A stretch of DNA of 64,000 nt from Paenibacillaceae bacterium (GTDB taxonomy: Bacteria; Bacillota; Bacilli; Paenibacillales; CANHGK01): positions 13,453 to 77,452 of the forward strand of contig CANHGK010000008.1 of NCBI GenBank assembly GCA_947460235.1, read 5' to 3'. This document shows, one piece after another, positions 3,278-63,364 of this stretch. The notes under the pieces were generated by a model. The model ran no database searches and was not told where the DNA came from. It worked only from the letters and a program-made list of their open reading frames with translations. Each line of letters starts with the position of its first letter. The first letter of the stretch is position 1. Position numbers and translations under genes: made by a program.

Positions 3278-6200
3278 ATGGTGTGGAACGTGAAAAAGAC
3301 ATGGATTGCATATCGATACCTACTCATCTGCGCAATTGTTTGCATCCTGTGGCTTCCTGCGTACTTAACTGCCTTAGCGGGCCCTGTCGGCGAAAAGGCT
3401 AACGCAATCCGTATTGCGAATTGGCCTAATGGATTTCAAAAAGATTCGGATTCGTTTCATGGTGGTGCATTTGATGGTAAGAATGTTTGGATGGCACCAT
3501 ATGATGCTGACCGTATCGTTAAGATTAATGTTGCAGATGGTGAGATGGGCTCAATTCGTGCTTTTCCAGATGGATACACGTATACGTCCGGAGCATTTAG
3601 TGGAGCAGTCTATGATGGCACTTCGGTTTGGTTCATTCCATTCAATGCAGAGCGGTTGATTAAGATTGATCCGATCACTCTAAAAGTTTCATATGGCCCA
3701 CAGTGGCCAAGTGATTTTAAGAAGATGCAATCCGCATTTGATGGCGGTGTTGTTATCGGTGATTATTTGTGGTTAATTCCCCATGCATCTGATAAATTAT
3801 TGCGTTTAAATATTAAAAATTTCGCGTGGGACGCGTATTCGAAATGGCCCAATAATTTTTCGCATGGTAATGGTGCATTTTCTGGTGGAGTAGCTTCGTT
3901 GGATGGAGGCACGCTTTGGTTGGTTCCGTCCGATGCGAATATGATCGTAAAAGTTAATGCTTCGAACGGTGAAATGACGGGAAACAATGCGTGGCCAATT
4001 GGATTTTCAAAAACGAATGGAGCATTTTCTGGAGGCGCTACAGATGGTAATGGTCTGTGGTTAGCACCAAAAAAAGCAGATAAATTGGTGCGACTTGATT
4101 TGGTGAGTGGTGGAATGACTAGTTTTGCGAAGTGGCCTGCGGGAATGTCAATTGGAATCAATGCGTTTTCTGGAGCGATATATGACGGGCGGGATATTTG
4201 GTTGACTCCGTATGGAGCGGATCGAATTGTTCGTGTCAAAACGAACGGAGAAATGAGTGCACCGATTACATGGCCAAATGGCTTAAACCGAGGGATTCAG
4301 GCGTTTCAAGGTTCGGTATTTGATGGTTCGGATTTATGGCTCATACCATCTTCGGCGGATGCTGTCTTGGAATTGGTTGGGAATCGAACTCCGACTGCGA
4401 ATGGATCAAGCATTCAATTAACTGAAGATATTCCATATAGCGGTTTGTTGTCAGCATCAGACCTGGATGCAGATCCGTTAAAATTTACGGTTGTCAAAAC
4501 ACCTTCTAAAGGTGTATTAACGTGGATAAATGATTCAACGGGAAACTATAAATATACTCCAAATCTAAATGCGAATGGATCGGATACCTTTACCTATCGG
4601 GTAAGTGATGGAGTTACCTTTTCTAGCGAGGCAACCGTTTCGGTTTCGATTGCAAATGAGAATGATCCACCTGTTGTGAATGCACTTACCATACAAGCGC
4701 GTGAAGATGAATCCAAAACTGGAATTGGGATCGCTAATGATCCAGAGTTAGATGCATTAGAATATCAGATTGTTTCAAATGGTTCAAAAGGAACGTTTAC
4801 TTTTACGAACAATAAGACCGGTGAATTTTTATATGTGCCAACACCGGATCAGAACGGAAGTGACGAAGTTTCGGTACGCGTTAAAGACGGGAAATTGTTT
4901 TCGAATACCGTTAAATGGCAAGTGAATATTGTTCCTGTTAATGATATGCCGATTGCAAAGGACGTTACATTGCAAACGAATGAAGATCTTGCTGTTCAAT
5001 CGAATTTGAAGGCTTCGGATATTGATGGCGATGCACTTTCCTATGAATTCATTCAACAACCAACGCATGGGAATGTGATGATCTCAGATATTACAAAAGG
5101 AACTGTGATTTATAAACCAGATGAAAATTATTTCGGTTCTGATCAATTTGTTTATACGGTATCAGATGGCCTTTTAACATCGGCGCCTGCGAATGTTAAA
5201 ATTAATATTGCACCGATTGACGATGCACCTGAATTAAGTAGTGCAAATTTTACAGTAGTTCAAGGCGTTTCATTGCATGAACAATTAACTGCTAGTGATT
5301 TGGAGAATGATCCGTTAACATTTGAAATCGTCTCACCTCCTACGCACGGTAAATGGAGTTGGATTAATGCAGCAGATGGGAGATTTACGTACGAACCCGA
5401 GTTGAATTGGACTGGAATTGAAACGATTCAAGTTGATGTAACGGATAATGTATTGAAATCGGAAGTGAAATCGATTTCGATTGTTGTTTCGCCGACCGTA
5501 AAAAAACCAGTTGAAGTAAAGCAAGAGTTTCAGGTGACGAGTGGTGTTTATACCGTTAATCGATTAAATGTTCCGAATTCTGAGCAGAATGATTTGACGT
5601 TTGCACTCATGCTGAATCCTGGAAAAGGGAAGTTTGAATGGATCGACAATCAACACGGGTATTTTTACTATCAATCCAAAAGTGGTTTTATTGGTGATGA
5701 CGAATTTGAATATTTAGTTAAGGATTCTGGCATATATTCTGAAATGGGTAAAATCATTTTGCACGTGTTGGCTGCAACGAATGCTCCAATTAATACGGTG
5801 AGCCCGACTCCTTCGCCTACGTCAGTCCCAACAAATAAGCCAACAGTGTCAATCACGCCATCACCTACACCTTTAATTGTGAATAGTCAATCTCCAGCAG
5901 TTTTGCTGTCAAATACACCAGCACCTACAGTATTGGTTTCAGCATCACCGAATGCGACTTCGGTGAATCAACAGAGTCATACGCCGTCTCCAACATCTGT
6001 AATTAATGTTTTGACAAATAATCCTAATGCAACAAGTTCATCAACACCGATTGCACCTGTTGCAACGCCAGTCGTGATTCCGCAAATTGTATACATTCCT
6101 TACTATATTGAAGTGACGCCGATTCCTACGGCTACTTCGACGCCTGTGATGATACCGAATCCTACACCAACGTTGGAAATTAAAAAAATAAACGTTACAG

Positions 6201-7207
6201 TTACACCGGTTCCGTTGTCGAAAGTGGTGAATATGCCAGAATTACATTCGAATCATGGATTGGACTGGGTGGAAATAGATGATCAGACATTGAATCAAGA
6301 AATTTCCAAAACAATCCCTTTGAAAATAATTGGCCAGAAAAATAAAGAAATTCAGTTCGAAGAAGTTGTTAATGATGATCAAAAGGTGTTATCAATGATT
6401 ATGAATGATCAATTGGTACTACGTCCGAATGATTCGTTTTTCACAATTAATTTTTCGGGAAAGCGAGTAAGCAAACCGGTGTCGATTACGATTAGGGCAT
6501 CGGATCGAATGGGGAATTGGTCTGATCAAATTGTGCTTGTTGATGTTCGCGAAGTTCAGCGTGTGGAAATTTCTGCATTGAATGATGTAGTACTACCTTT
6601 GCCTGAAGAATGGAAAATGCAATTGAATGCTGGAGCGAATTCGAAAAAAGCTGCGTTTATGAAGGTTGTTAAAATTCCTGTGACAATCGAAGTTCAAAAT
6701 CGCGATGAAGAAATGATGGTAAGTGCTCAGACGGATAGTGCGTGTGGTTTGCAAGTGGATGGGTTTAACGGGAAGTCAATATTGTCTGAGGACGAGTCCA
6801 GCCGAACATATTACTTGAATGTCGTTGTTACCGACCGTTCGTCATTACGTCCATGTCATGTAGAAGTGACAGCAACCAGTGAAGGTCTTTTGCCTCGCTC
6901 ACAATCGTTTACGATTACTCCCGAAAATGTTCGTCCGAAACTAAACTTTATTAATCCATTAATGGTTATTAAATCAAACCAGCGCAGATTAATCACAATT
7001 AAGGCGACCGATCCGAATCAAGATCGCTTGACGTATTCTGTTAAAGGTGGAAATGATCAGACGGTGAAATTGACTCGTCAAGGTAATGTTTGGTTTTTAA
7101 AACCTGCGCCTTCTTATAAAACGACCACAGGTGTTAAGTTTTCTGTCAGGGTTGAGGATGGAAGGGGCGGGTTTGATTCCAAAACGTTCCGAGTAATTGT
7201 TAAATAA
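3278..7207 (+). CDS. large secreted repeat protein: signal peptide, 7 propeller-like ~47-aa repeats, 4 cadherin/BIg-like ~95-aa repeats, Pro/Thr/Ser-rich linker, C-terminal domain
   Basis: N-terminal hydrophobic signal. Seven copies of AFSGGxxDGxxLWLxPxxADxIV(K/R)(V/I)...WPxGF. Four repeats with DxDxDPLxF...Y(T/K)PxxNxxGSDxFTYxVSDG. Low-complexity PT(S) stretch at nt ~5770-6230. No LPXTG or SLH motif seen. Confidence 0.6.
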   Translation: MVWNVKKTWIAYRYLLICAIVCILWLPAYLTALAGPVGEKANAIRIANWPNGFQKDSDSFHGGAFDGKNVWMAPYDADRIVKINVADGEMGSIRAFPDGYTYTSGAFSGAVYDGTSVWFIPFNAERLIKIDPITLKVSYGPQWPSDFKKMQSAFDGGVVIGDYLWLIPHASDKLLRLNIKNFAWDAYSKWPNNFSHGNGAFSGGVASLDGGTLWLVPSDANMIVKVNASNGEMTGNNAWPIGFSKTNGAFSGGATDGNGLWLAPKKADKLVRLDLVSGGMTSFAKWPAGMSIGINAFSGAIYDGRDIWLTPYGADRIVRVKTNGEMSAPITWPNGLNRGIQAFQGSVFDGSDLWLIPSSADAVLELVGNRTPTANGSSIQLTEDIPYSGLLSASDLDADPLKFTVVKTPSKGVLTWINDSTGNYKYTPNLNANGSDTFTYRVSDGVTFSSEATVSVSIANENDPPVVNALTIQAREDESKTGIGIANDPELDALEYQIVSNGSKGTFTFTNNKTGEFLYVPTPDQNGSDEVSVRVKDGKLFSNTVKWQVNIVPVNDMPIAKDVTLQTNEDLAVQSNLKASDIDGDALSYEFIQQPTHGNVMISDITKGTVIYKPDENYFGSDQFVYTVSDGLLTSAPANVKINIAPIDDAPELSSANFTVVQGVSLHEQLTASDLENDPLTFEIVSPPTHGKWSWINAADGRFTYEPELNWTGIETIQVDVTDNVLKSEVKSISIVVSPTVKKPVEVKQEFQVTSGVYTVNRLNVPNSEQNDLTFALMLNPGKGKFEWIDNQHGYFYYQSKSGFIGDDEFEYLVKDSGIYSEMGKIILHVLAATNAPINTVSPTPSPTSVPTNKPTVSITPSPTPLIVNSQSPAVLLSNTPAPTVLVSASPNATSVNQQSHTPSPTSVINVLTNNPNATSSSTPIAPVATPVVIPQIVYIPYYIEVTPIPTATSTPVMIPNPTPTLEIKKINVTVTPVPLSKVVNMPELHSNHGLDWVEIDDQTLNQEISKTIPLKIIGQKNKEIQFEEVVNDDQKVLSMIMNDQLVLRPNDSFFTINFSGKRVSKPVSITIRASDRMGNWSDQIVLVDVREVQRVEISALNDVVLPLPEEWKMQLNAGANSKKAAFMKVVKIPVTIEVQNRDEEMMVSAQTDSACGLQVDGFNGKSILSEDESSRTYYLNVVVTDRSSLRPCHVEVTATSEGLLPRSQSFTITPENVRPKLNFINPLMVIKSNQRRLITIKATDPNQDRLTYSVKGGNDQTVKLTRQGNVWFLKPAPSYKTTTGVKFSVRVEDGRGGFDSKTFRVIVK

Positions 7208-11273: not shown

Positions 11274-11933
11274 ATGCACATCCCTGACGGATTTTTGGAT
11301 GCCAAAACATGGATCAGTACAACGCTACTTGGCGGGGCGGTGGTTATGTTGGCTTCGCGTAATGCCCAAGTAGGTTTGAAACGTGAACAAGTTCCCAAAA
11401 TGGGTCTGTTAGGGGCATTTATTTTTGCGACGCAAATGGTTAATTTTCCGATTGCTGGAGCAACTTCAGGACATTTTCTCGGCGGTGCAATGGCGGCAAT
11501 TTTGTTTGGACCTTGGGTCAGTGTGTTGTTGATGAGTGCAGTGCTGATTATTCAAGCGTTTATTTTTCAAGATGGTGGTGTAACCGTGCTGGGAGCAAAC
11601 ATCTTGTGTACAGGAGTTCTCGGTAGTTTTGCAGGGTATGGGATGTATCGTTTCCTTGGAGTACGGGGGTTTCAATGGCTTAGTGAATCAGTCAAAATTT
11701 TCACGGCTGCGTGGTGTTCAATTGTAGCTGCGGCGAGTGGTGTTTCGTTGTTACTTGCTTTATCAGGTACAATGCCACTTGCCATAGGATTACCGGCCAT
11801 GACAGGTTGGCATAGTTTGATTGGGATTGGTGAAGGCTTGATTAGTGTTTGGGTAATCGCTTATTGGCGCAAGGCGCAGGCCGTCGCTTCACCGATATTG
11901 GTTGATACGAATCAAAGCGGTGAACACCGATGA
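11274..11933 (+). CDS. cbiM: CbiM/NikM substrate-specific component of Ni/Co transporter
   Basis: Begins MHIPDGFLD, the processed N-terminus typical of CbiM/NikM. About 6 TM. The ATG directly abuts the upstream stop. Confidence 0.8.
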   Translation: MHIPDGFLDAKTWISTTLLGGAVVMLASRNAQVGLKREQVPKMGLLGAFIFATQMVNFPIAGATSGHFLGGAMAAILFGPWVSVLLMSAVLIIQAFIFQDGGVTVLGANILCTGVLGSFAGYGMYRFLGVRGFQWLSESVKIFTAAWCSIVAAASGVSLLLALSGTMPLAIGLPAMTGWHSLIGIGEGLISVWVIAYWRKAQAVASPILVDTNQSGEHR

Positions 11934-12203: not shown

Positions 12204-13757
12204 ATGAAAAAAAGTGCACAATCGATTAAATATCGTACAGCGGGATTGCTCGTTGTACTCATGAGCATGGTGCTATGGTCGGACGAGCGTGTGTTAATTG
12301 GATATAGTGTAGTTCTTTGTTTATTCATGTGGTGGAGCGGGTTATCGCTTCGAGAGGCGGGGCAACGATTGTTGTTACTCATTCCTTTCGGTGCGGGAAC
12401 ACTCGCTTTTTTGCCGTTCCATGGACATGAGGTTGTGGTCGGTGATGTGATGGGGTGGCACGTATATGAAGATGGACTCACGAAGGCGATTGGTTTGCTA
12501 TTAAAAATGGTCAATGCGAGTTTGATCCTTAGTATGATGTTGCATAAGATTGATTCGGGGCAATTTTTTCATAGTTTGCGTGCGCTCGGATTGCCGAAAT
12601 TATTGACTGAGCTGTTGCAACTGATGATGCGCTATGTTCATGTGCTAGGGGAAGAAGCTCGGTCCATGGTACTTGCTCAAAAGGCGCGAGGATTTCGGGC
12701 ACAAGGTTGGTGGTGGTCGATCAACAATTATCGACGTTTTGGGCAGTTGATGGGTGTTTTATTTGTGCGAAGTTTACGGCGCAGTGAGCGAGTTGATTTG
12801 GCGATGCGTTCACGCGGGGAACGTGAATGGTTTGGGGGTACTGACATGGAAACGTCTATGGAAAAATCGTTAAGTGGTCGCTCGGAATGGGCCGTAGAAA
12901 TGAAGGGTGTCGGTTACTCCTATGCAGGAAGTAACTCACTAGCACTGCGCGGAATCGATTTGTCGATTCGAAGTGGGAGTAAAACGGTATTGATGGGGAT
13001 GAATGGTGCGGGGAAATCGACGCTCATTTCGTTATTGAACGGACTGGCGCAGGTCTCAAAGGGAATGTATCGTTTGTTCGGACAAGAAATTACGGAGAAA
13101 AATGCGATGCATGCGAGGCGTGGTGTCGGTGTCGTTTATCAGGACCCTGATGATCAATTGTTTTCGCCAACGGTCTCAGAAGACATCGCATATGGTCCAT
13201 CGAATATGGGCCTATCGGAATCGGAAATTGAAGATCGTGTTACATATGCGATTGGTGCAGTTGGGTTGAGCGCTTTGGCAGATAAGTCTCCGTTTGAACT
13301 TAGTTACGGACAGAAGCGGCGAGTTGCAATTGCCGGTGTGATGGCGATGCGACCACCAATGATGGTGCTCGATGAACCAATGGCCTATCTTGATCCGCGT
13401 GGTCGGGATGAATTGCAGGCATTGCTTGAACAGTTGCATTTGATGGGAACAACCCTCATCGTAGCGACGCACGATGTTGATTTTGCTGCAGAATGGGCAG
13501 ATCATGTGATCATTTTGCGCGACGGGAAAGTACTTGCTGAAGGGGATGTTTCGCTTTTATTCGATGAAAAAATTGTGTATGAAGCAGGGCTGCATTTGCC
13601 GAGGTTGGTCAGACCATTTCGATTGTTGCAAGGCGCAGGCGATGTGAAACCGCGCACGGTTCGACAAGCGGCGCAAGAAATGTGGCGTTTGATTTTGAAA
13701 GGGACGAATGCAGAAACGAAGCATGACGAGCAAAATCAACTCAAATCTTTTCGTTGA
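12204..13757 (+). CDS. fused CbiQ (T component) - CbiO (ABC ATPase) of Ni/Co transporter
   Basis: N-terminal ~220-aa polytopic membrane domain. C-terminal ABC domain with Walker A GMNGAGKST, signature LSYGQKRR and Walker B MVLDEPMAYLD. Confidence 0.75.
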   Translation: MKKSAQSIKYRTAGLLVVLMSMVLWSDERVLIGYSVVLCLFMWWSGLSLREAGQRLLLLIPFGAGTLAFLPFHGHEVVVGDVMGWHVYEDGLTKAIGLLLKMVNASLILSMMLHKIDSGQFFHSLRALGLPKLLTELLQLMMRYVHVLGEEARSMVLAQKARGFRAQGWWWSINNYRRFGQLMGVLFVRSLRRSERVDLAMRSRGEREWFGGTDMETSMEKSLSGRSEWAVEMKGVGYSYAGSNSLALRGIDLSIRSGSKTVLMGMNGAGKSTLISLLNGLAQVSKGMYRLFGQEITEKNAMHARRGVGVVYQDPDDQLFSPTVSEDIAYGPSNMGLSESEIEDRVTYAIGAVGLSALADKSPFELSYGQKRRVAIAGVMAMRPPMMVLDEPMAYLDPRGRDELQALLEQLHLMGTTLIVATHDVDFAAEWADHVIILRDGKVLAEGDVSLLFDEKIVYEAGLHLPRLVRPFRLLQGAGDVKPRTVRQAAQEMWRLILKGTNAETKHDEQNQLKSFR

Positions 13758-13783: not shown

Positions 13784-13819
13784 TGATTATCTAATTTCGC
13801 GACAAATGAGGTGTTTAGC

Positions 13820-14233
13820 TTGGACGCAGTTTCAAATCAACGAGTGCATCCGCGGATCTCGATTAGTGGAAAGATCAAATTTTCGTTTATTGCATTTAAA
13901 ATTGGTGAAAACGGCAAATATGAAGAAGATATTTCAATTATTGAAACACAAATTCGCGATATTTCCCTTGGCGGCATCAGCTTTGAAGATGTGCGAAGTT
14001 ATGAGCCTGGCATGAAAGGGTATATTTTTATTGTAATCGGACGCAGAAGATATGCACTCGTTGGTGAAGTTGTACGGTGTATTTCAGGCCAAAATGCGTA
14101 TCAAGTCGGAATCGCATTAGATAAAAATTTGAATGATGATGGAATGTTTGAACCGAGTGAAGAAATTGTGGAATTAATTCAGCGCTTAGAAGTATTACTT
14201 GAACATGATCCGAATTATACGAACATCACGTAA
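13820..14233 (+). CDS. PilZ-domain protein (c-di-GMP receptor family), paralog A
   Basis: RxxxR motif (QRVHPR) and DxSxGG motif (RDISLGG). TTG 13820 follows a GAGGTG RBS. Confidence 0.65.
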   Translation: MDAVSNQRVHPRISISGKIKFSFIAFKIGENGKYEEDISIIETQIRDISLGGISFEDVRSYEPGMKGYIFIVIGRRRYALVGEVVRCISGQNAYQVGIALDKNLNDDGMFEPSEEIVELIQRLEVLLEHDPNYTNIT

Positions 14234-14247
14234 TTGGAGGACGGACT

Positions 14248-14598
14248 ATGTTTCAGCGCATTCCATTGGATGAGCCGATTAAGACGCATTGGGTGCTGCG
14301 TTTTTTTATTTTGTTTTTACCTTGTTTGTTCGTTCGGTTTGCCGTTGGTCCAATTCAAGCACATTTAGGAATTTTGCCGGGCAGTTTTTACTGGTTCGGC
14401 ATTTTATATTTTCCGATGACAAATTGGACGATATATTGGGTGATGTTTACGATTCGTGTAGGAATCAATCGGATCGCCGGAAATGAGCGGATTACCGTTC
14501 CTAAATTGCGGAAATTTTATCGTTGGTACTTAAACGTGCCGGGTGGATTGGTATTATCGGAGTTGGTATTTCAGGGCTATTTGTATAATGCGGGATAA
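14248..14598 (+). CDS. hypothetical membrane protein
   Basis: 116 aa, 3 predicted TM. GGAGG RBS upstream; no recognisable motif. Confidence 0.4.
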   Translation: MFQRIPLDEPIKTHWVLRFFILFLPCLFVRFAVGPIQAHLGILPGSFYWFGILYFPMTNWTIYWVMFTIRVGINRIAGNERITVPKLRKFYRWYLNVPGGLVLSELVFQGYLYNAG

Positions 14599-14611
14599 GA
14601 ATGGACGTGGA

Positions 14612-14640
14612 TCACTCATTCGAGTGGTCTTTTTTTTGCA
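14612..14640 (+). terminator. weak rho-independent terminator
   Basis: GATCACTC-ATTC-GAGTGGTC hairpin followed by T8. Confidence 0.35.
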
Positions 14641-14735
14641 GAAAAATCCAGTGTCACAATAGGAAAGGCAGGGGAATCTTTGTGTGGAAAAGAATTGTAT
14701 ACAGATAAATGCTACTAGGGAAAAGGAGGGGTTTT

Positions 14736-17438
14736 GTGTTTTGGAAAAGACGAAGACTTCACATTGGAATTATGATAACGATGATCTTTTGGATCGTTTT
14801 ATTGATGGCTAGTGAATCTGTATATGCTGCACAATCTGAGAAAATTGTGAATTTAGAGCAAGGATGGGCATATTCAAAGGCAGAGGTGAAACCGGACCAG
14901 ATGGATTCGGTGAAGTGGGAAGCACTAAATCAATTATCGGATAGCAAACTTTCTGAACAAAATTCGGAAACGCCGGTCGTTTCATTTCGGATTACATTGC
15001 CAAATGTGGACTGCGTGGAATGTGTGTTATCATTCGAGCGATATATTCGTTCATATGTGTTATATGTAGATGGGCACGAAGTTGCATCTTCAGGTGGTGG
15101 GGCTACCAGTCAATTGTTGTCACTGGGAAAACCAGATGCAATTATTGATTTACCGGGGACGCCAAAAGGGAAACAATTATTACTTGTGGAGAATATTTCA
15201 CACCGATCAACGCCGCTTTATTCACCAATTTATTTTGGTGATAAAGAAACAATAATACGAAAACAGTTGTCCGGGGAACGTACGCAAATCATTATATCAA
15301 TGCTCGTATTGATGACGGGATTGATTTCGACGATGTTGTATTTATCGCTCAAGAAAGATGCAGCTTTTTTGAATCTCGGATTATGTGCAACGAATATTGG
15401 GTTGTATATGCTAAGTTGTTCGGGCATGGTTCATTATTTCTCTAATGATATGCCATTTTGGGATTTTCTCGAATATTTGACTCTTTATACGATGCCGTTG
15501 ACGACGTGGTATTATTTCCGCAACTTTGTCACATCTAAACCAAGTTTACATTGGTCACTCGTGGCCGGAAATGGTGGATTTATTTTATTTTCGTTACTTC
15601 AACAAGTTCGTGGCATTGCATTGTTTGAGTACGTTGGGATTCAGCGCGTCGTATTTCTAGTATCGCTGGTGTTTATTATTGCAGAATTGGTCCGTTCTGC
15701 ACGAGCCGGGAATCGTGAGGCAAAAATGGTTGTAGCTGCCTTTATTATTACGTGCTTAATTACCATGTGTAAAATTATTGCACTCTTTTTTAATGTGGAT
15801 TTAACGAATTTAACTTCCTATGCCGGTGGATTTTTCATGTTGTCACAATTGTTCGTGATGACTGACCGTTTCCGCAGAATGAATGAAGAACTGAGCATTC
15901 ATTCCAAGAATCTGGAACGATTCAATGAAGTTATGGAAGGGGAAGTGCATAGTCGTACGAAGCAAGTGCGTACGTTGATGGACAATGTAGCGCAAGGATT
16001 TTTAACGGTTGGGCCGAATTTGATTGTGGAAAAAGAGTTTTCCAAGGCGTGTATTAAATTACTTGGTGAGGAACCTGCGGGCCGAAATATTGTTGATTTA
16101 TTAACACGGGGCGATGCATCGAAAACGGAATGGCTGGAGAGGATGTTCCGTGATGTATTCGAAACGACTGAGCAATTCAAAATTGATATGTATGTTCAAT
16201 TACTGCCGAGTGAAATTGTCAGAGATGGTAGAACGTTGGGGATTTCGATGGAAGTCGTTCGCAGTGTGAATGAAAAACCTGAACATCTGATTTTAATGTT
16301 TAACGATCTAACGAAACAACGCGCACTCGAAGAAAAATTGAAAAATGAAGAGAAGCTAATGCGTATGATTGTGACGGTTTTGTCGCGTTCACGAGATTAT
16401 GCGGACTTAGTAGATGATTACCATCAATTTGTCGACTACGACTTGCCGAGTCTATTGAAAAATGTTCATTCGGAAATGACGCCAGATGTTCGGGTGCTCA
16501 GACTCGTGCATACGTTCAAAGGAAATTTCGCACAAATGAACTCCATTCTCTTAGCGGCACATTTGCATGAGATTGAGCACACGATTAAACGCGGGGAGCA
16601 TGAGCGTTTGGAGGAGTGGGCATTTAGGGTTTCGCAATTCGAATGGAAACAAGCACTGCAAAAAGAACAGCAACGCATGTTTGAAATTTTACCGGCGCAT
16701 CATTGGAACGATCAAAAAAATGCGATCCCAGTGCCGCGTAATACATTACTACATTTGCGCGATTATATTTTAGATAACTTACCAAATGATTTGGCGTCAT
16801 CGTTGGTAAAAGAGGTTGAACGTTTATACCAAAAATCGTTTGCGAGTTTATTCGAAGCGGTTGCTGAAAACACTTCTCAACTTGCAGAACGAATAAATAA
16901 AATGATCGAACCAGTGACCATCGAAGGCGGGGAATGGTTTGTTGATTTGGAACCTTGGTATGGATGGTCAAAATCATTAATTCACATTTCGCGTAATCAA
17001 GTAGATCACGGGATCGAGGATCCGGATATACGCATCGATACCGGCAAAGAATTATATGGTAAAATAAGCATTTCGATTGCCCAAGATTTGAATCATGTCA
17101 CCATTCGTTTTGCAGATGATGGCGCTGGAATTAATGTCGATAAATTACGTAAAAAGTTAATTAGTAATCAAATGATTTCTGTCGCACAAGTAGCAACGTT
17201 GCCAGATCATGAGTTGTATCGTTATTTATTTATGGATTCAGTAAGTACGAGGGATTCTGTATCGGAGTTGTCAGGTCGTGGCGTAGGTCTGGCGAAAGTG
17301 CTTGAGGAGACTGAAAAACTTGGTGGAACAATCGAAGTGGAGTCTGTGGTTGGTATTGGAACGACATTTATTTTCTGCATTCCCGTCAGAGATGGGTTGC
17401 CAGTAGCACAACAATCACATCGTGAAATCGCATCGTAA
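14736..17438 (+). CDS. 7TMR-DISM sensor fused to HPt domain and CheA-type HATPase (class-II-like histidine kinase)
   Basis: Signal peptide KRRR...VYA-AQ, ~150-aa extracytoplasmic domain and 7 TM. HPt-like HTFKGNFAQMN. CheA-type N box HISRNQVDHGIE, G1 DDGAGIN, G2 GRGVGL. No HisKA H-box and no CheW-like P5 domain. GTG 14736 follows GGAGGGG. Confidence 0.7.
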   Translation: MFWKRRRLHIGIMITMIFWIVLLMASESVYAAQSEKIVNLEQGWAYSKAEVKPDQMDSVKWEALNQLSDSKLSEQNSETPVVSFRITLPNVDCVECVLSFERYIRSYVLYVDGHEVASSGGGATSQLLSLGKPDAIIDLPGTPKGKQLLLVENISHRSTPLYSPIYFGDKETIIRKQLSGERTQIIISMLVLMTGLISTMLYLSLKKDAAFLNLGLCATNIGLYMLSCSGMVHYFSNDMPFWDFLEYLTLYTMPLTTWYYFRNFVTSKPSLHWSLVAGNGGFILFSLLQQVRGIALFEYVGIQRVVFLVSLVFIIAELVRSARAGNREAKMVVAAFIITCLITMCKIIALFFNVDLTNLTSYAGGFFMLSQLFVMTDRFRRMNEELSIHSKNLERFNEVMEGEVHSRTKQVRTLMDNVAQGFLTVGPNLIVEKEFSKACIKLLGEEPAGRNIVDLLTRGDASKTEWLERMFRDVFETTEQFKIDMYVQLLPSEIVRDGRTLGISMEVVRSVNEKPEHLILMFNDLTKQRALEEKLKNEEKLMRMIVTVLSRSRDYADLVDDYHQFVDYDLPSLLKNVHSEMTPDVRVLRLVHTFKGNFAQMNSILLAAHLHEIEHTIKRGEHERLEEWAFRVSQFEWKQALQKEQQRMFEILPAHHWNDQKNAIPVPRNTLLHLRDYILDNLPNDLASSLVKEVERLYQKSFASLFEAVAENTSQLAERINKMIEPVTIEGGEWFVDLEPWYGWSKSLIHISRNQVDHGIEDPDIRIDTGKELYGKISISIAQDLNHVTIRFADDGAGINVDKLRKKLISNQMISVAQVATLPDHELYRYLFMDSVSTRDSVSELSGRGVGLAKVLEETEKLGGTIEVESVVGIGTTFIFCIPVRDGLPVAQQSHREIAS

Positions 17439-17445
17439 ACTAAAA

Positions 17446-17495
17446 AAAAGAGGCGGATCACGTTTTGAGAAACATGTGATCTGCCTCTTTCATTT
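17446..17495. terminator. bidirectional rho-independent terminator
   Basis: AGAGGCGGATCAC...GTGATCTGCCTCT stem flanked by A8 on the 5' side and T-rich sequence on the 3' side. Confidence 0.55.
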
Positions 17496-17510: not shown

Positions 17511-17846
17511 CTAGTTTTGCTTTGCTTTAATAAAAAATGTTTGAATCCAAAGTACAAGGACCAAGAACGATGTTCCTAGTAATGAATAGTACAACAACAT
17601 GGTAAATGAATTCTCGCCACTATCTGCTGTGAATACCGTTCCCATGAGTGCAATTGGGAAGAAAATCACCAGGAGGATCGGTGACAAAATGAGAAACACA
17701 AGTTTACGAATTCGAACACTTGTCGTAGACACAATCCATTTCGTACGATTCAAGAAGAATAATAAACAATACAAAATAATTAATAACAATGGAACGCTAC
17801 AAACGAACAACCAAATCAACAAACCATCAGTAAAGGATACTTCCAT
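17511..17846 (-). CDS. hypothetical small membrane protein
   Basis: About 111 aa with 3 TM. ATG at 17846 follows an AAGGGAG RBS. Confidence 0.4.
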   Translation of the reverse strand: MEVSFTDGLLIWLFVCSVPLLLIILYCLLFFLNRTKWIVSTTSVRIRKLVFLILSPILLVIFFPIALMGTVFTADSGENSFTMLLYYSLLGTSFLVLVLWIQTFFIKAKQN

Positions 17847-17910
17847 TTGGCATAACTCCCTTATGTATAAAATGATATTCACGTCATGAATGTACCACTA
17901 AAATGCTACA

Positions 17911-18857: not shown

Positions 18858-19580
18858 TTACACACCACTGCCAGAAACTGCTGGCGAAGTTGTTGGAGTA
18901 GGAGTCGTTGCTTGAGCGGCTTGCATTTCTTTGAGGTGCTTCACTTTTAATACAAGTTCTTGTTTTTCTGCTGCAATGACGTCTTTTAATGCAGCTGCGA
19001 TGTCTGAGGTTTTGTCCGCTGTGATTGCAGTCGTTAATTTGTCATGCGCAGCCTTTTCTGCGTCAATCGTTGTTTGATCTGGTTGTGTCAGTTTGCTTGG
19101 ATCTGGTCGTGCACCTGAAGTGCGAAGTGCATCCATTTGTGTTTTGAATTCTTTTTCAGCTTTAATCAATGCATCTGCATCTGTTTTTAGTTCAGGGGCA
19201 TATGCGTTTACGAGCAATTGCAAATATTTTTGTTGATGTACTCCGCCGCCAGGACCTCCTATGCCAATCATGCCGCCGTGATCACCGCGACCACCATCAA
19301 ATTTTCCGTCCATCATTTCTTGCCCGCCAGGTCCACCATGACCACCATGACCACCATGACCACCGCGTCCCCCGTGATGACCTCCAGGACCTCCAGGACC
19401 TCCATGTCTGCCAAGGCCGCCAAATCCTTCAAATCCATTTTGATCTTGTTGTTGAGATGTACCAGGTGTTGTCGATGGTGTCGTAGTATTTGCTGTTGCG
19501 AATGCAGCGTAGCCACCGATGCTTGCGCCGAGAACAGCGATAATCGCAATTGTTGAGCTAAGTTTGCTAAGTTTTTTCAT
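18858..19580 (-). CDS. secreted His/Gly-rich protein with C-terminal alpha-helical (DUF2680-like) region
   Basis: Signal peptide. Low-complexity HGGPGGPGGHHGGRGGHGGHGGHGGPGG. GGAGG RBS. Confidence 0.5.
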   Translation of the reverse strand: MKKLSKLSSTIAIIAVLGASIGGYAAFATANTTTPSTTPGTSQQQDQNGFEGFGGLGRHGGPGGPGGHHGGRGGHGGHGGHGGPGGQEMMDGKFDGGRGDHGGMIGIGGPGGGVHQQKYLQLLVNAYAPELKTDADALIKAEKEFKTQMDALRTSGARPDPSKLTQPDQTTIDAEKAAHDKLTTAITADKTSDIAAALKDVIAAEKQELVLKVKHLKEMQAAQATTPTPTTSPAVSGSGV

Positions 19581-37264: not shown

Positions 37265-38527
37265 TTATACGGATGCTTCTGCAGTCGTACGACTTTCTAA
37301 ATAAGCAGTTAATTTTTGACGAACATGAATCGCAGCCCCGGACAGTAAGCAACCATATTTATAACCGGCTTCGTCGTTTTCGACGCGGATAATCCGACCG
37401 ATCAATGGTGGCAATTCTGCTTCGTAAGGGAAGTGCAATACGATAAACATATCTTGTGCAAGTGGTGTTGCTGATGTAATCATCATCCCACCAGCCGAGA
37501 GATCAAAGAATTTACCTTCAACAGTTTGACCAACGAATGCGCCTTCTGCTGTATACTGATGAATCGAAATTTGAACGTCGATGCCCATGCGAATACGCGG
37601 TGCACGGCGACGATTCGTTTCTGGTTGTTCAGGATCGAATCGTTTCGTAATTTTGGCATTCATCAAGTCTTCGTATGTCATCACAACAGAGGATAAATCC
37701 ATTGCGCCAACTTCTTTTAGCATTGCCGTTTGATAAACATTTTTGCCGTTTTGGAGTATTGGTAGTGGCAATTGATATTCATCTGCAAGTTTGGAGGCAA
37801 TCTGTAAATCTTTATACATTAATTGAAGTGAGAATTGATTAGAAAAGTCGCGGGAAAGGATTTTCTCGCCTTTCATTTCAGCCATACGGCTGCTAGCACC
37901 GCCAGCAAGGACGACTTTCATAAATGCTTCTGGATCAATCCCTGATTTACTTGCAATGGCTAAGCCTTCGCAAAGGCCTAATACGTTGATTCCAACAATT
38001 GTATTTGCTGCAATTTTAGTATATCCACCTGAACCAGGGCCCCCCATATATATTGCATCTTTTCCCATTGCCAGGAAAAGATCGCGATGATCATCTAAAA
38101 TGGTTTGTTCGCCGCCAATCATGAACACCAAGCTACCGTCGATTGCCGCGGGTTTACTACCGGATACTGGCGCATCAAGAAAATCGATGCCATGTGATGC
38201 CAGTTCGATATGTAGTCGGATACTTAAGCCAGGTGAAATTGTGGAACAGTCGATAACCGTTACTGCGGGATGTAATCCATCCATGATGCCATTAGCACCA
38301 AAGTAAACATTCTCAATGGAGCTGTCATCACTCAACATGGTAATAACCACTTCAGACGATTTGACAACTTCTGCTGCACTTGCATGTGCAATTGCACCAA
38401 GTTCAATAAGCTCGTTCACACGTGAGTTCGTTCGGTTATATACGTTTAATGTGTAACCTTTCTTGATCAAGTTTGCTGCCATCGGTTGTCCCATAGTTCC
38501 GAGTCCAATAAAGCCTATTTTTTTCAT
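37265..38527 (-). CDS. NAD-binding beta-hydroxyacid (3-hydroxyisobutyrate-type) dehydrogenase fused to C-terminal PilZ domain
   Basis: N-terminal GFIGLGTMG Rossmann motif and HIBADH-like core. C-terminal ~110 aa carry RxxxR (NRRRAPRIR) and DxSxGG (FDLSAGG). GAGGTGA RBS before ATG 38527. Confidence 0.7.
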   Translation of the reverse strand: MKKIGFIGLGTMGQPMAANLIKKGYTLNVYNRTNSRVNELIELGAIAHASAAEVVKSSEVVITMLSDDSSIENVYFGANGIMDGLHPAVTVIDCSTISPGLSIRLHIELASHGIDFLDAPVSGSKPAAIDGSLVFMIGGEQTILDDHRDLFLAMGKDAIYMGGPGSGGYTKIAANTIVGINVLGLCEGLAIASKSGIDPEAFMKVVLAGGASSRMAEMKGEKILSRDFSNQFSLQLMYKDLQIASKLADEYQLPLPILQNGKNVYQTAMLKEVGAMDLSSVVMTYEDLMNAKITKRFDPEQPETNRRRAPRIRMGIDVQISIHQYTAEGAFVGQTVEGKFFDLSAGGMMITSATPLAQDMFIVLHFPYEAELPPLIGRIIRVENDEAGYKYGCLLSGAAIHVRQKLTAYLESRTTAEASV

Positions 38528-38705
38528 CCAATGATCACCTCGCGTACATTGTAACACGACATTTCATCGCTGTGAATGCTTTTACTTGCTTTTTTCCGTT
38601 GTTTTCAAGTATGCTATGTGATAAATATAATAGAACATCAAGGAAAAGACAGCCTAACAATGTTCGTGAAATGTGCAGGCCTTGTCTTATTAGGAGGATA
38701 CTTCA

Positions 38706-58164: not shown

Positions 58165-58740
58165 TCACTCTAAAATAATATCTTTGTTCATAATTTGTTT
58201 GTACAGAATGTAGCTTTTAAGATTGTGTAGATTTTCTTTGGATACGATTAAGAATTCGCAACCATAACGTTTGCTTCCTTCAGCACCAACTTCGTTAACA
58301 ATTTTGATTTGCGCGACAAGCGGCAAGTCCATGTTAATCAGCGTATAGTGGCGGTCGGTTTGAACCGAGTTTTCATTAGTAGCAGAAAAACCAGCACCTT
58401 TGTGACTAATATCACTAAGTGAAATTTGAATATGCGATCCGGTTTTGTCGTCTTCAAGATTATCGATAAGATACGCTTTCATACCAGTTTTGATGCGCGG
58501 ATATTTACGTCGAACATCATTCAAGTCCACAAGTGCAAGTGGAATGAACAAATAAACGTTGTTTTGATGAACGTTAATCGCTCGCACGATGAATTCTTTG
58601 CCGCCATATGCGCAAGTCACATATTGTCCTACGCGTAATCTAGATGCGTCTGGAAGCGCAATTTTCATTAATTCTCCGTGATATAGAACGACTTCACCTT
58701 CAAGGATCTCGTCTCCGATTGTAATTTTTACCGTGTCCAT
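58165..58740 (-). CDS. YcgR/DgrA(YpfA)-like PilZ protein (PilZN + PilZ)
   Basis: C-terminal PilZ with an RxxxxR block (RRKYPRIK) and DISHKGAGF. Two-domain layout about 190 aa. GGAGG RBS before ATG 58740. Lies 25 nt downstream of corA on the same strand. Confidence 0.6.
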   Translation of the reverse strand: MDTVKITIGDEILEGEVVLYHGELMKIALPDASRLRVGQYVTCAYGGKEFIVRAINVHQNNVYLFIPLALVDLNDVRRKYPRIKTGMKAYLIDNLEDDKTGSHIQISLSDISHKGAGFSATNENSVQTDRHYTLINMDLPLVAQIKIVNEVGAEGSKRYGCEFLIVSKENLHNLKSYILYKQIMNKDIILE

Positions 58741-58852
58741 GGAACGGCCTCCTCTAAACAGTGCTGAGCCTGCATATGATTGCTTCGATTGCGAAATAGG
58801 ATAGACAAAAAAATCCATACCTTCCACAGTTACTGTATACTATTCTACAACG

Positions 58853-59788: not shown

Positions 59789-60085
59789 GGGGAATCACTC
59801 CTAACGGACGTAACTACACCCTACACGGTAATGGCAAGGGCAGTCCGGCCAATATGATGTTTGAAAAAAGTACAATTGTCCCAGGGCCTCGGTCGTTCTC
59901 CGTCCATGCCATTTCACTCCTTTATTTCCCGAAATGTCCGCATCCTTTCCAACTATACTCCTCAAAACTAATGCTTTCAAGCGTAAGTTTCCTTGATTAA
60001 AATGCGCTCCTTGACCTGTCAACTCATATGTTATACATTCATCTTTAGACTGCTTTTAATGGTGACAATTGTAGGAGGGTTGGGT

Positions 60086-62197
60086 ATGCCGATTAAGGTA
60101 CCTGATTTTTTACCGGCGAAGGAAACGTTGGTACGTGAAAATATTTTCGTAATGGATGAATCGCGTGCATATCAACAAGATATTCGCCCGCTTAGTATCG
60201 CAATTTTAAATTTAATGCCTAATAAAGAAGTGACAGAAACACAATTGCTTCGATTGATTGGGAATACCCCACTTCAAATCGAAGTAACGTTACTGCATCC
60301 TGCAACGCATCGTGCGAAACATACAGACGAAGCGTACTTGCAGTCTTTTTATCGTACATTTGAAGAGATTAAGGAACATAATGTCGATGGATTGATCATT
60401 ACCGGAGCGCCGATTGGGCATTTACCATATGATCAGGTGAGTTATTGGGAAGAGTTGAAGCAAATTATGGAGTGGAGTAAGAAACATGTTACTTCTACTT
60501 TATTCTTATGCTGGGGCGCGCTTGCTGGACTGTACCATCATTATGGAATTGAGAAAGTTTATGATGACAAAAAGACATTCGGAATTTTTCCGCATAAACG
60601 CAGTTTGCGAAATAAGCCTTTGATGCGCGGATTTGATGATGTGTTCTGGGTTCCGCATTCCCGCTATAACTATATTCGCAAGGCAGATGTCGATGCACAT
60701 CCAGAATTAGAAATCTTGTCTGAATCCGAGGAAACGGGTGTGTATTTAGTTGCATCTAAGGATGGCCGGCATGTTTTTGTAACTGGTCATGCAGAATATG
60801 AAGCTAATTCACTTCGTGAAGAATATGAACGAGATCAAATACGTGGGTTAGATACGTCGATCCCGGAGAACTATTTCCCGAATAACGACCCATCCAGAGA
60901 TGTGATGGTGTCCTGGCGGGCGCATGCATCACTTATGTTTAGTAACTGGTTGAACTATTACGTCTATCAAGCGACTCCGTACGATGTTGAACGAGTGAAT
61001 TTGCCAGTGATGGATTGGCGTTCGAAAGGGTTTTTGATGGACTCAAGACTTGCCCAAATCGGCACACATTCGGATCCTGCTACGGGCGGTGTAAGTTTTC
61101 CAATTTATAATTCAACGGCATTCCGGCATCCGGGTCTCGGCCAAAGTACAGGATTTGACTATTCGCGTTCAAAAAACCCTACGCGTTCCGTGCTTGAACA
61201 AGCCATTGCGGAGATTGAGAGCGGTGACACGGGTTTCGCATGTAGTACTGGTATGGCGGCGTTGCAGACGGTATTTGCTTTATTCCGTACAGGCGATCAT
61301 TTGATTTGTTCACTTGATTTGTACGGTGGTACATACCGGATGATTGAACAAATATTATCGCGTGCGGGTGTGACTGCATCATATGTGGATACGAATGATT
61401 TACAGGCCATCGAATCAGTGGCCAAACCAGAAACAAAAGCTATTTTCATTGAGACTCCGACGAATCCGATGATGATGATTACGGATATACGCAAAGCTGC
61501 AAAGTGGGCGAAGGCACGCGGTTTGCTTACGATTGTAGATAATACGTTAATGACTCCATATTTCCAGCGTCCGATTGAACTTGGAGCGGATATCGTTGTG
61601 CATAGTGCGACCAAATATTTGGGCGGACACAATGACGTTTTAGCGGGTTTAATTGTGACAAAGGGCGAGAAACTTAACACGGAAATGGCCTTTTTGCATA
61701 ATGCAATTGGTGCTGTTCTCGGAGCGAACGACAGTTGGTTGTTAATGCGCGGGATGAAAACATTGGCGCTTCGGATGGAGCGTCACGAATACAATGCGAC
61801 GATGTTGGCGCAATATTTGACAAAACATCCGCTAGTTGAAAATGTATTTTATCCAGGGCTTAAGATTCACCCGGGATATGAAGTGCAGAAGGAACAGGCA
61901 ACAGGTAATACGGGGATTTTCTCATTCCGAGTGAAAGATTCGCGCTATGTTGCGCCAATACTGAAACACATTAAATTGATCAATTTTGCGGAAAGTCTGG
62001 GCGGTGTTGAATCGCTGATGACCTATCCAATGGTGCAGACGCATTCCAATATTCCAGCGCATATCCGTAATGTAATTGGTGTGGATGATTGTTTGCTTCG
62101 TCTTTCCGCTGGCGTAGAGCATATTGATGATTTGGTGGCTGATTTGAGCCAAGCGTTGCAAAAAGCAGCTGACGACGTAGTAGTCGGAGGGGAGTGA
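60086..62197 (+). CDS. metA-metI: in-frame fusion: homoserine O-acyltransferase MetA (N) + cystathionine gamma-synthase/O-acetylhomoserine thiolyase MetI (C)
   Basis: Residues 1-~305 are collinear with MetA through the conserved C-terminus [13 protein letters not shown]. After a ~20-aa linker, a complete Cys/Met-PLP enzyme follows (LAQIG...PIYNSTAF...SATKYLGGH). No stop codon separates them. GGAGGG RBS before ATG 60086. An internal AAAGGG plus ATG (MDSRLAQIG) sits at the junction. Confidence 0.7.
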
Positions 62198-62203
62198 TTC
62201 ATC

Positions 62204-63364
62204 ATGGCTAATCATCGTGACGAACAACACCAGTTTGAAACAAAATTACTTCATTGGGGCTCCGAAATGGATCCGCACTATGGTGCATCGAATGTTCCAA
62301 TTTATCAATGTTCTACATTTCATCAAGAAGATGTGGACAATCCGCCAGAGCATGACTATACACGTTCTGGTAATCCGACGCGTCAAGCGGTTGAGGATCA
62401 AATTGCCTATCTCGAAGGTGGCGCGCGGGGATTTGCGTTTGCGTCGGGGATGGCTGCGATCAGCACAGCATTTTTCTTATTGAGCGCTGGAGATCATGTC
62501 ATCGTGACCGAAGATGTGTATGGCGGGACGTATCGTATTTTAACGACATTGCTGAAACAAATGAACATCGAATCAACGTTCGTAGATATGACAAATATCG
62601 ACGAGGTGAAAGCAGCACTCAAACCGAACACCAAAGCAGTATATATGGAAACGCCGTCTAATCCGACACTTCGGATTACGGATATTCGTACGGTTTGTGA
62701 TTGGGCGCATGCAAATGGGTTGCTCACGATGCTCGATAACACATTTATGACGCCGTATCACCAAAAGTCGATTCCTCTTGGCGTCGATGTGGTATTGCAT
62801 AGTGCAACTAAATTTCTTGGCGGACATTCAGATGTGCTTGCAGGGTTGGCTGTCGCTGCAAATGACTCAATTGGTCGCCGTTTAAAAGGATTGCAGAATA
62901 GTCTTGGCAACGTTGCCGGACAATTTGATTCCTGGTTACTCATGCGCGGAATCAAAACATTGGCAGTTCGCATGGAGCAACATGAGTCGAGCGCGCGTAA
63001 GTTAGCGCAGTGGCTCGTTACCGATCCGCGCGTTGTGAATGTATTTTATCCAGGGTTACCGAATCATCCAGGCCGTGTTGTTCACGAATCACAGTCCAAA
63101 GGTTACGGCGCGATCGTATCGTTCGACGTCGGTTCAGGTGAACGTGCCCGCGAAGTCATGAGTAAAGTGAAATTGCCACTCGTTGCTGTGAGTCTAGGTG
63201 CAGTCGAAAGTATTCTCTCGTATCCACCCAAAATGTCGCATGCCGCGATGCCGCAAGAAGTTCGCATGGCACGTGGAATTACCGATGGCGTGTTACGATT
63301 CTCTGTCGGTTTAGAAAATATTGATGATTTAATTGCGGATTTGGATCAAGCATTGGGTAAATAG
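62204..63364 (+). CDS. metC: cystathionine beta-lyase
   Basis: Cys/Met-metabolism PLP family, collinear with Bacillus MetC (SATKFLGGHSDV). GGAGGGGAG RBS. Confidence 0.8.
   Translation: MANHRDEQHQFETKLLHWGSEMDPHYGASNVPIYQCSTFHQEDVDNPPEHDYTRSGNPTRQAVEDQIAYLEGGARGFAFASGMAAISTAFFLLSAGDHVIVTEDVYGGTYRILTTLLKQMNIESTFVDMTNIDEVKAALKPNTKAVYMETPSNPTLRITDIRTVCDWAHANGLLTMLDNTFMTPYHQKSIPLGVDVVLHSATKFLGGHSDVLAGLAVAANDSIGRRLKGLQNSLGNVAGQFDSWLLMRGIKTLAVRMEQHESSARKLAQWLVTDPRVVNVFYPGLPNHPGRVVHESQSKGYGAIVSFDVGSGERAREVMSKVKLPLVAVSLGAVESILSYPPKMSHAAMPQEVRMARGITDGVLRFSVGLENIDDLIADLDQALGK

Follow-up and report, generated by a model that had tools for sequence, protein, structure and literature searches.

A CheA-like histidine kinase with a 7TMR-DISM sensor of its own and without a P5 domain in a Paenibacillaceae bacterium, one member of a large and apparently unstudied family

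In the textbook view, the histidine kinase CheA does no sensing of its own, and chemoreceptor arrays set its activity through CheW and through its own P5 domain. A survey of CheA sequences taken from the MiST database states that CheA "lacks a sensor (input) domain", gives P1, P3, P4 and P5 as its core domains and reports a CheW domain in 100% of the 13,673 sequences surveyed (Berry, Andrianova and Zhulin 2023, PMC10782961). Here we describe a gene that departs from this picture. It lies in a 64,000-nt (64 kb) stretch of contig CANHGK010000008.1 from a Paenibacillaceae bacterium (assembly GCA_947460235.1), which we call the window and whose numbering is used for all coordinates. The gene, at 14736-17438, encodes a predicted kinase with a CheA-like catalytic core, a membrane sensor fused to it and no P5 domain.

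CheA domains in an unusual arrangement have a precedent in the split CheA3 and CheA4 of Rhodobacter sphaeroides, in which P4 phosphorylates P1 outside the five-domain chain (PMC6829392). Unlike the window kinase, both of these proteins keep P5, work in the setting of a chemoreceptor cluster and carry no fused sensor. The sensor of the window kinase is of a type familiar from class-I sensor kinases with a 7TMR-DISM domain, such as Pseudomonas aeruginosa RetS and LadS. In such class-I kinases (P0142 and P0126 among the relatives found here), HisKA and HATPase_c follow the sensor and the acceptor lies on the DHp helices, whereas the window kinase has the order PAS-P1-P3-P4 behind the same type of sensor. 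ArcB, BarA and RcsD/YojN, which are unorthodox or hybrid kinases with a C-terminal HPt, resemble it in carrying an HPt four-helix bundle on the kinase polypeptide, but their bundle serves as the third step of a relay that first passes through a HisKA histidine and a receiver within the protein, and the window kinase has neither. We also considered Geobacter EsnC as a precedent and rejected it, as it is an ordinary CheA that works with a methyl-accepting chemotaxis protein (MCP) and CheW.

In the comparison with CheA itself (Thermotoga maritima and E. coli; PDB 1tqg for P1, 4xiv for P3P4, 1i58 for P4 and 1b3q for P3-P5), the window kinase has a homologous P1, with the H..K and H(+19)..E(+22) pattern, and a homologous P4, with a P3-like hairpin before P4. 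As in CheA, the predicted phosphoacceptor sits in an HPt bundle of its own, apart from the dimerisation helices, and the likely partners are CheY-type receivers and CheX. Unlike CheA, the protein lacks both P2 and a P5/CheW-like domain, and a fused membrane sensor and a PAS-like domain precede P1. Its P3-like hairpin is short, its P4 falls into a separate clade, and the window holds no CheW or MCP genes. The window kinase is set apart from CheA by two defining features, the presence of P5 and the absence of a sensor of its own, while its catalytic core is CheA-like; judged by its lack of HisKA, it is no class-I kinase either. We consider it probable that its product is an active and self-contained class II (CheA-type) sensor kinase. 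The features of its transmitter half are given below, with residues numbered in the 909-aa frame that begins at the ATG at 14709 (subtract 9 for the 900-aa protein).

15906..15986 (+): long signalling helix, the cytoplasmic continuation of TM7, to residue ~426 (helix 386-426 in the model, pLDDT >90)
15987..16313 (+): PAS-like domain with a conserved N..QGF motif, residues 427-535 (alpha/beta fold in the model, ~430-533)
16314..16712 (+): P1-type HPt helical bundle, residues 536-668 (family profile against the PDB; conservation of H601)
16509-16511 (+): codon of the predicted phosphoacceptor His601, which is His592 of the 900-aa protein (HTFKG motif; model helix 592-609)
16737..16829 (+): P3-like two-helix hairpin, residues 677-707, presumed dimerisation element (model helices 677-690 and 693-707; no conserved histidine)
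16839..17393 (+): ATP-binding domain of the CheA P4 type, residues 711-895; the N, G1, F and G2 boxes are all intact (NCBIfam, PDB, Foldseek)

The model of this half (AlphaFold, residues 385-909) was built from 94 aligned homologs and reached a pLDDT of 92.5; the conservation counts were taken from an alignment of 94 family members. For the HPt domain, we searched the PDB with a profile of 26 family sequences. The profile matched the P1 domains of CheA structures (1tqg, E 7e-13; 2ld6, 1e-12; 1i5n, 4e-10) and the P1 of CheA3 (PDB 3kyi/3kyj, E 1e-5), but other HPt domains (BarA, YojN and 7c1i) only at E 0.01-0.1. By these matches the HPt domain of the kinase is of the P1 type. H601 is kept in 93 of the 94 sequences, T602 in 92, K604 in 93 and G605 in 92, and the conservation continues downstream with H620 (+19, 84/94) and E623 (+22, 94/94). 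The spacings equal those of H48, K51, H67 and E70 of CheA. Conservation strongly supports the histidine of HTFKG as the putative phosphoacceptor, and the HPt helix that the original prediction had read around this motif is confirmed by the profile matches. The PAS-like segment that had been proposed ahead of it held up as well: it forms an alpha/beta fold in the predicted structure and gave a weak match to the FixL PAS model in the NCBIfam scan (residues 408-474, E 7e-5). Within its motif, G430 is kept in 89/94 sequences, and Q429 and F431 in 74/94 each.

The ATPase gave a Pfam HATPase_c match at residues 756-894. Two NCBIfam CheA models match residues 724-893 (E 5e-38 and 6e-24); the class-I kinase models of NCBIfam match only the last ~40 residues, at the G2-box end. 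CheA P4 of T. maritima in the PDB was matched with E 2e-26, and Foldseek gave TM scores of 0.85-0.90, normalised to the target, to CheA P4 structures. Nine residues (N763, H767, D803, G805, G807, G856, R857, G858 and G860) are invariant in 94/94 sequences, and according to the alignment the window kinase has kept every residue expected for ATP binding and for P1 phospho-acceptance. The N and G1 boxes are of the CheA type, as had been predicted from the motifs, and the domain did not turn out to be a class-I ATPase.

Between P1 and P4, where a linker of ~140 aa had been assumed, we found the remaining helices of P1 and a structured hairpin. The top Foldseek match overall was the CheA P3P4 fragment 4xiv_A (252 aligned columns, 250-residue target, TM 0.70). 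Because the hairpin and the ATPase together superpose on the full length of this fragment, the hairpin at residues 677-707 would correspond to P3, at about half of the canonical length (~30 residues against ~60 in CheA P3). With a P3-like hairpin in the supposed linker, the protein reads as P1-P3-P4, which is more than an HPt plus an ATPase. Pfam found no match at E<=1 to the HisKA family, P2 (PF07194) or CheW/P5 (PF01584) in the kinase protein, whose end lies 16 residues past P4; the absence of all three agrees with the original prediction.

The sensor half was modelled separately (AlphaFold, residues 1-400, 19 aligned relatives, pLDDT 82) and contains the following features.

14757..14831 (+): N-terminal hydrophobic segment, LHIGIMITMIFWIVLLMASESVYA followed by A (hydropathy peak at residues 17-35; model helix 4-39)
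14832..15263 (+): extracytoplasmic beta-sandwich sensor domain, residues ~42-185 (model strands 46-178)
15279..15905 (+): 7TMR-DISM seven-helix membrane domain, residues 191-399 (Pfam PF07695 and AlphaFold model)

The N-terminal segment may be a signal peptide, with a putative cleavage between VYA and A, or an anchor. The membrane domain was matched by PF07695 (7TMR-DISM_7TM) at residues 197-385 with 39 bits against a cut-off of 29, over profile positions 9-203 of 205, and the model places seven membrane helices between residues 191 and 399, behind the beta-sandwich. The 7TMR-DISM sensor, first recognised from the letters alone, is thereby confirmed. The beta-sandwich weakly but consistently resembles the N-terminal sugar-binding jelly roll of GH2 glycosidases (Foldseek, E 3e-4, ~160 columns). 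DISMED2 has a galactose-binding-like fold according to its Pfam clan. Neither 7TMR-DISMED1 nor 7TMR-DISMED2 gave a Pfam match at E<=1 in the kinase protein, so the label DISMED2 is plausible but unproven. Among the domains that had been expected from a scan, 7TMR-DISM_7TM and HATPase_c were found, while 7TMR-DISMED2 went undetected and Hpt stayed below its cut-off. The same type of sensor also occurs on class-I kinases: P0142, which is 40% identical to the kinase by phmmer, has the order sensor-HisKA-HATPase, and P0126, which is 37% identical over residues 9-407 (extracytoplasmic domain plus 7TM bundle), has the order sensor-HisKA-HATPase-REC.

The combination of sensor and CheA-type core is not unique to this gene, and the kinase proved to be one member of a large family. 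A phmmer search against 1.84 billion representatives returned 1,722 clusters at E<=1e-30, and nearly all of the best 150 matches aligned without a break to the whole cytoplasmic module (residues ~385-895). Since canonical CheA would by our own estimate reach only ~95-115 bits in this search, the threshold mostly excludes ordinary CheAs. A profile search added 704 proteins. Only the four-module profile search and the exhaustive phmmer search make the family visible; a word-indexed homolog search gave 6 matches for the whole protein and 1 match for its N-terminal 400 residues. Both the PAS-like part and the P4 part are present in 266 of the 273 proteins retrieved. The family is marked by the conserved motifs N..QGF and HTxKG...H..E and by the N, G1, F and G2 boxes, all of which the window kinase has. 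The N-terminal inputs found in the family comprise HAMP, dCache, PAS, GAF, CHASE, NIT, cytochrome b561, solute-binding and 7TMR-DISM domains, and inputs as varied as these are the pattern expected of an output module that is driven by a fused sensor.

We examined the nearest representatives, 55 with the window protein included, by domain content. HATPase_c was found in all 55, a fused C-terminal CheX in 32, a Pfam-detectable Hpt in 24, HAMP in 11, 7TMR-DISM in 8 and REC in 5, and HisKA, CheW, H-kinase_dim and P2 are absent among the 25 most frequent of the 34 families in this set. The architecture of the window gene recurs both without CheX (P0007, P0135, P0157) and with CheX (P0128, P0131, P0138, P0143). 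One relative, P0126 (1256 aa), combines the 7TMR-DISM sensor with a class-I HisKA-HATPase-REC part, followed by a degenerate copy of PAS-P1-P3-P4. In this copy HTFKG is changed to IEKFKQ, the N box RNQVDHGIE to RGQLEHQIE, and the G2 box is missing; these changes suggest a module that has turned into a pseudokinase and has been retained after a receiver. Proteins of the family are at present annotated as 'ATP-binding protein' (NCBI) or 'chemotaxis sensor kinase CheA' (JGI).

A scan of genome contigs with the module profile, using patterns drawn from the P4 boxes, was swamped by canonical CheAs, and 13 of the 80 loci belong to the family. Family members and canonical CheAs were sorted with a hidden Markov model (HMM) of the PAS-like domain only and by the tails that follow P4; an HMM of PAS plus P1 and a P5 seed were rejected as separators, because both cross-matched. 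A P5-like tail is missing from all 13 family ORFs (open reading frames) in these loci. When P4 sequences were placed in a neighbour-joining tree, one branch with a bootstrap of 86/100 divided 49 family members from 55 CheAs that bear P5; the tree is unrooted, its CheA sample is biased, and it gives no direction of evolution. The split by a single branch indicates that the family is a distinct clade and not a scatter of CheAs that have lost P5. MiST is believed to define CheA by the core domains named at the outset. For this reason, sensor-fused kinases would go unsampled in the survey built on it. A literature search turned up no description of a sensor-fused PAS-P1-P3-P4 family, which, for a search of one library, is no proof of absence. 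The kinase is a CheA-type enzyme by its domains, with its own sensor and without P5, in a large, uncharacterised and apparently unstudied family.

A search of the window for partners, with Pfam on the long ORFs taken to be genes and with REC and CheX HMMs on every ORF of at least 60 aa, found no gene for REC, CheX, CheW, an MCP or a further HPt domain besides that of the kinase. The original prediction had stated that no response regulator, CheW, CheY or MCP gene is nearby, and this holds across the 64 kb. Elsewhere in the family, CheY-like REC genes adjoin the kinases at L005-L011, L013, L015, L017 and L034, a REC-containing hybrid kinase adjoins the one at L016, and CheX genes are present at L006, L007, L008, L010, L011 and L015. 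The family genes of Desulfurivibrionaceae and Herbaspirillum are followed by CheX and a single-domain REC, and one from Planctomycetes is followed by REC, with a CheX gene ~0.8 kb upstream. One from Acetobacterium has a REC directly upstream, and most other family loci in genomes have a REC, often together with CheX, at most 1-2 genes away. Directly 3' of two CheX-fused kinases, both of probable Bacillota origin, we found genes for REC + STAS-like proteins of ~250 aa (L090:3901-4662 and L091:4502-5242). These two proteins are 36% identical to each other, with a STAS match at E 2e-3, below the Pfam cut-off, and they hint that some members of the family act through partner switching. The partner receivers, as seen in their sequences and alignment, share a CheY-like 'DLVTMDITMP' motif, which resembles that of B. 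subtilis CheY.

The proposed class II sensor kinase might work as follows. The extracytoplasmic beta-sandwich and the 7TMR-DISM bundle form the sensor, whose cue is possibly a carbohydrate or an envelope signal, and TM7, which runs on as a ~60-residue helix into the cytoplasmic PAS-like domain, would relay the signal. The protein may dimerise through the membrane domain, the signalling helix and PAS-like domain, and the P3-like hairpin. Within the dimer, the signal would alter the presentation of P1 to P4, and P4 would move the gamma-phosphate of ATP onto His601 (His592 in the 900-aa numbering). The fused sensor would in this way replace the MCP-CheW-P5 coupling that controls canonical CheA. 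P1 would then, to judge from the relatives, hand the phosphoryl group to a CheY-type receiver, which in this genome should be encoded outside the 64-kb window; it may be the chemotaxis CheY, another CheY-like protein that stands alone, or a REC-STAS-like protein. In the relatives, the presumed receiver is encoded beside the kinase, often with the CheX phosphatase, or else CheX and REC are fused to the kinase.

Several points weigh against this proposal. The single sequence matched Pfam Hpt with E 5e-3, below the cut-off, and Pfam H-kinase_dim (PF02895) gave no match at E<=1 in the kinase protein. We infer autophosphorylation, the phosphoacceptor and the dimer alike. The match of the beta-sandwich to a sugar-binding fold is weak (E 3e-4). 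No partner receiver can be named for the window kinase; the closest relatives whose contexts were read, P0010 (module 45% identical) and P0007, are orphans too, without CheX or receiver, so that the partnership with CheY and CheX is extrapolated from more distant members. Moreover, the degenerate copy in P0126, a close paralogue type, shows that the module is able to lose its kinase function.

Other explanations differ from the proposed kinase in its target, in its role or in its site of phosphorylation. The enzyme could feed ordinary chemotaxis by phosphorylating the chemotaxis CheY (or CheV/CheB), as an MCP-independent input to motility, which would be a special case of our proposal that differs only in the target. 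P1 and P4 of the CheA type, the 'DLVTMDITMP' motif of the relatives' receivers, the fusion of CheX, a CheY-P phosphatase, in 32/55 of the nearest representatives and a relative (L008) that adjoins a canonical CheA-CheW-MCP cluster all agree with such a target. The 64-kb window, on the other hand, is devoid of chemotaxis and flagellar genes, most loci of relatives have no MCP or CheW, and the REC + STAS-like proteins among the partners point to partner-switching output over the flagellar motor, which makes a chemotaxis target unlikely in our view. The protein could also be a node of a phosphorelay or a phosphatase, with a P1 histidine that receives or drains phosphate via the receiver of another kinase and a P4 that is regulatory. 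Among the closest relatives of the module, P0127 (an N-terminal REC plus the module, 45% identity) and P0126 do place it behind a receiver. The window kinase has no REC domain, its ATP boxes are intact and invariant in the family, as opposed to their loss in the P0126 copy behind a class-I kinase, and its fused sensor argues for a primary sensing role; we judge a relay or phosphatase function to be decidedly improbable.

It could further be asked whether the kinase is a class-I enzyme in disguise, in which the hairpin 677-707 is a divergent DHp with His682 (LLHLRD) as acceptor and the HPt is a second step of a relay. The hairpin does lie where a DHp would be expected, immediately ahead of the ATPase, and its histidine is followed by L-R. 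We nevertheless rejected H682, the only histidine of the hairpin, as phosphoacceptor, because its column is occupied mostly by A, E, Q, R or K in the 94 members, and this variability argues against a cryptic DHp histidine. Together with a HisKA-family search empty at E<=1, a CheA-type ATPase and the superposition of hairpin and ATPase on CheA P3P4, this leaves the cryptic class-I kinase as scarcely credible. Hardly more probable is that the gene is a non-functional, decaying remnant of a CheX/CheY-linked system, orphaned and now without a working partner. A missing CheX fusion, given its presence in 32/55 nearest representatives, and a missing adjacent receiver would fit decay, but the 900-aa frame is intact, with a good ribosome-binding site and terminators on both flanks, and every conserved catalytic residue is kept. 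In addition, members with a 7TMR-DISM sensor and no CheX exist elsewhere (P0007, P0135 and P0157, as listed above), and the identical protein was recovered in an independent sequencing run.

The gene itself is delimited by the following signals.

14609..14638 (+): intrinsic terminator with a 9-bp stem and T8, closing the upstream operon of the PilZ and small-membrane-protein genes (terminator scan; RNAfold -12.1 kcal/mol)
14722..14738 (+): ribosome-binding site AAGGAGG (14722-14728) and GTG start (14736-14738) (from the sequence; 900-aa product identical to P0001)
14736..17438 (+): whole kinase gene including the stop codon, encoding the sensor-fused CheA-like kinase of 900 aa
17447..17490 (no strand assigned): bidirectional terminator hairpin of 17 bp, with an A-run before and a T-rich stretch after it (RNAfold -26.7 kcal/mol)

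The long ORF in the ORF list spans 14709..17438 (+), and its ATG at 14709 has no ribosome-binding site. AAGGAGG is spaced 7 nt from the GTG at 14736, which is the likely start codon. The coordinates 14736-17438, already given in the original prediction, are supported by this ribosome-binding site and by the 900-aa product, which is identical to the database protein P0001. The identical protein also occurs on an independent Logan contig (L001, from a separate sequencing run), where the neighbours are unchanged as well. With its own ribosome-binding site and predicted terminators on both sides, the kinase gene is, by these signals, monocistronic. A PilZ protein and a small membrane protein had been named as its neighbours on the same strand, and they do adjoin it; because the terminator at 14609-14638 intervenes, they are neighbours and not operon partners, and co-transcription with the PilZ gene was rejected on this ground. 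On the other side, the hairpin at 17447-17490 sits between the stop codon of the kinase and a convergent small membrane-protein gene. We also considered a truncated CheX remnant 3' of the kinase and rejected it, as only 72 nt separate the stop codon from the convergent gene and the terminator lies inside them. The kinase gene has small multi-pass membrane proteins on both flanks (14248-14598 (+), 116 aa; 17511-17882 (-), 123 aa), and neither of them had a match in Pfam or NCBIfam. Both are present on the independent contig L001 and are not conserved beside the P0010 and P0007 relatives examined.

Some further observations concern the rest of the window. Three PilZ-domain proteins and an HD-GYP-like HD_5 protein are encoded at 13811-14233, 37265-38557 (-), 58165-58827 (-) and 1253-2296. 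One of the PilZ proteins is a 6-phosphogluconate/3-hydroxyisobutyrate dehydrogenase-like NAD-binding enzyme fused to a C-terminal PilZ domain. The region is rich in genes of cyclic di-GMP signalling, for which we found no link to the kinase. At 3278-7207 (+) lies a gene for a 1309-aa protein with four Big_9/cadherin-like repeats, probably a surface adhesin, and at 18858-19580 (-) one for a 240-aa protein with a signal-peptide-like N-terminus, a Gly/His/Pro-rich low-complexity stretch (GGHGGPGG repeats) and no Pfam match. In a 517-aa ORF at 12204-13757 (+), an ABC ATPase is fused with CbiQ, which is the transmembrane component of ECF-type cobalt transporters; CbiM (11274-11933) and a small ORF resembling CbiN lie upstream of it. 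Homoserine O-acyltransferase (HTS) and a Cys/Met-metabolism PLP enzyme are fused in a 734-aa protein (59993-62197 (+)); the gene after it, at 62204-63364, encodes another Cys_Met_Meta_PP enzyme, this one unfused. Spo0E-like, DUF2621 and MutS2 genes are present as well and point to a spore-forming Bacillota. Rfam at gathering thresholds found no RNA family in the 64 kb, despite genes for methionine, branched-chain amino-acid, folate/queuosine and cobalt-transport functions, which often carry riboswitches or T-boxes in Bacillota.

As for the meaning of these results, it is the family that contradicts the textbook generalisation on CheA, and the single gene is not exceptional within it. Its members have the same catalytic machinery (P1, P3 and P4) wired straight to ordinary sensor domains. 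For the window kinase, we predict a CheY-type receiver elsewhere in the genome, under the control of an envelope or carbohydrate signal. If the kinases are active, class II kinases would also be at work outside chemosensory arrays, and control over the access of P1 to P4 could be studied in a simple system that needs no array. Genome censuses that sort kinases by HisKA, or recognise CheA by its CheW domain, would then overlook or misname signalling proteins by the hundreds to thousands. We tentatively raise the possibility, with more doubt than confidence, that sensor-fused P1-P3-P4 kinases are a widespread and unrecognised class of class II signalling proteins, which sense directly with input domains of their own, work with CheY-type receivers and CheX phosphatases and do without chemoreceptors, CheW and arrays. 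If this is true, the statement that CheA has no sensor and always a CheW-like domain would describe only one branch of the class, and the branch without P5 might resemble the pre-chemotaxis ancestor of CheA.

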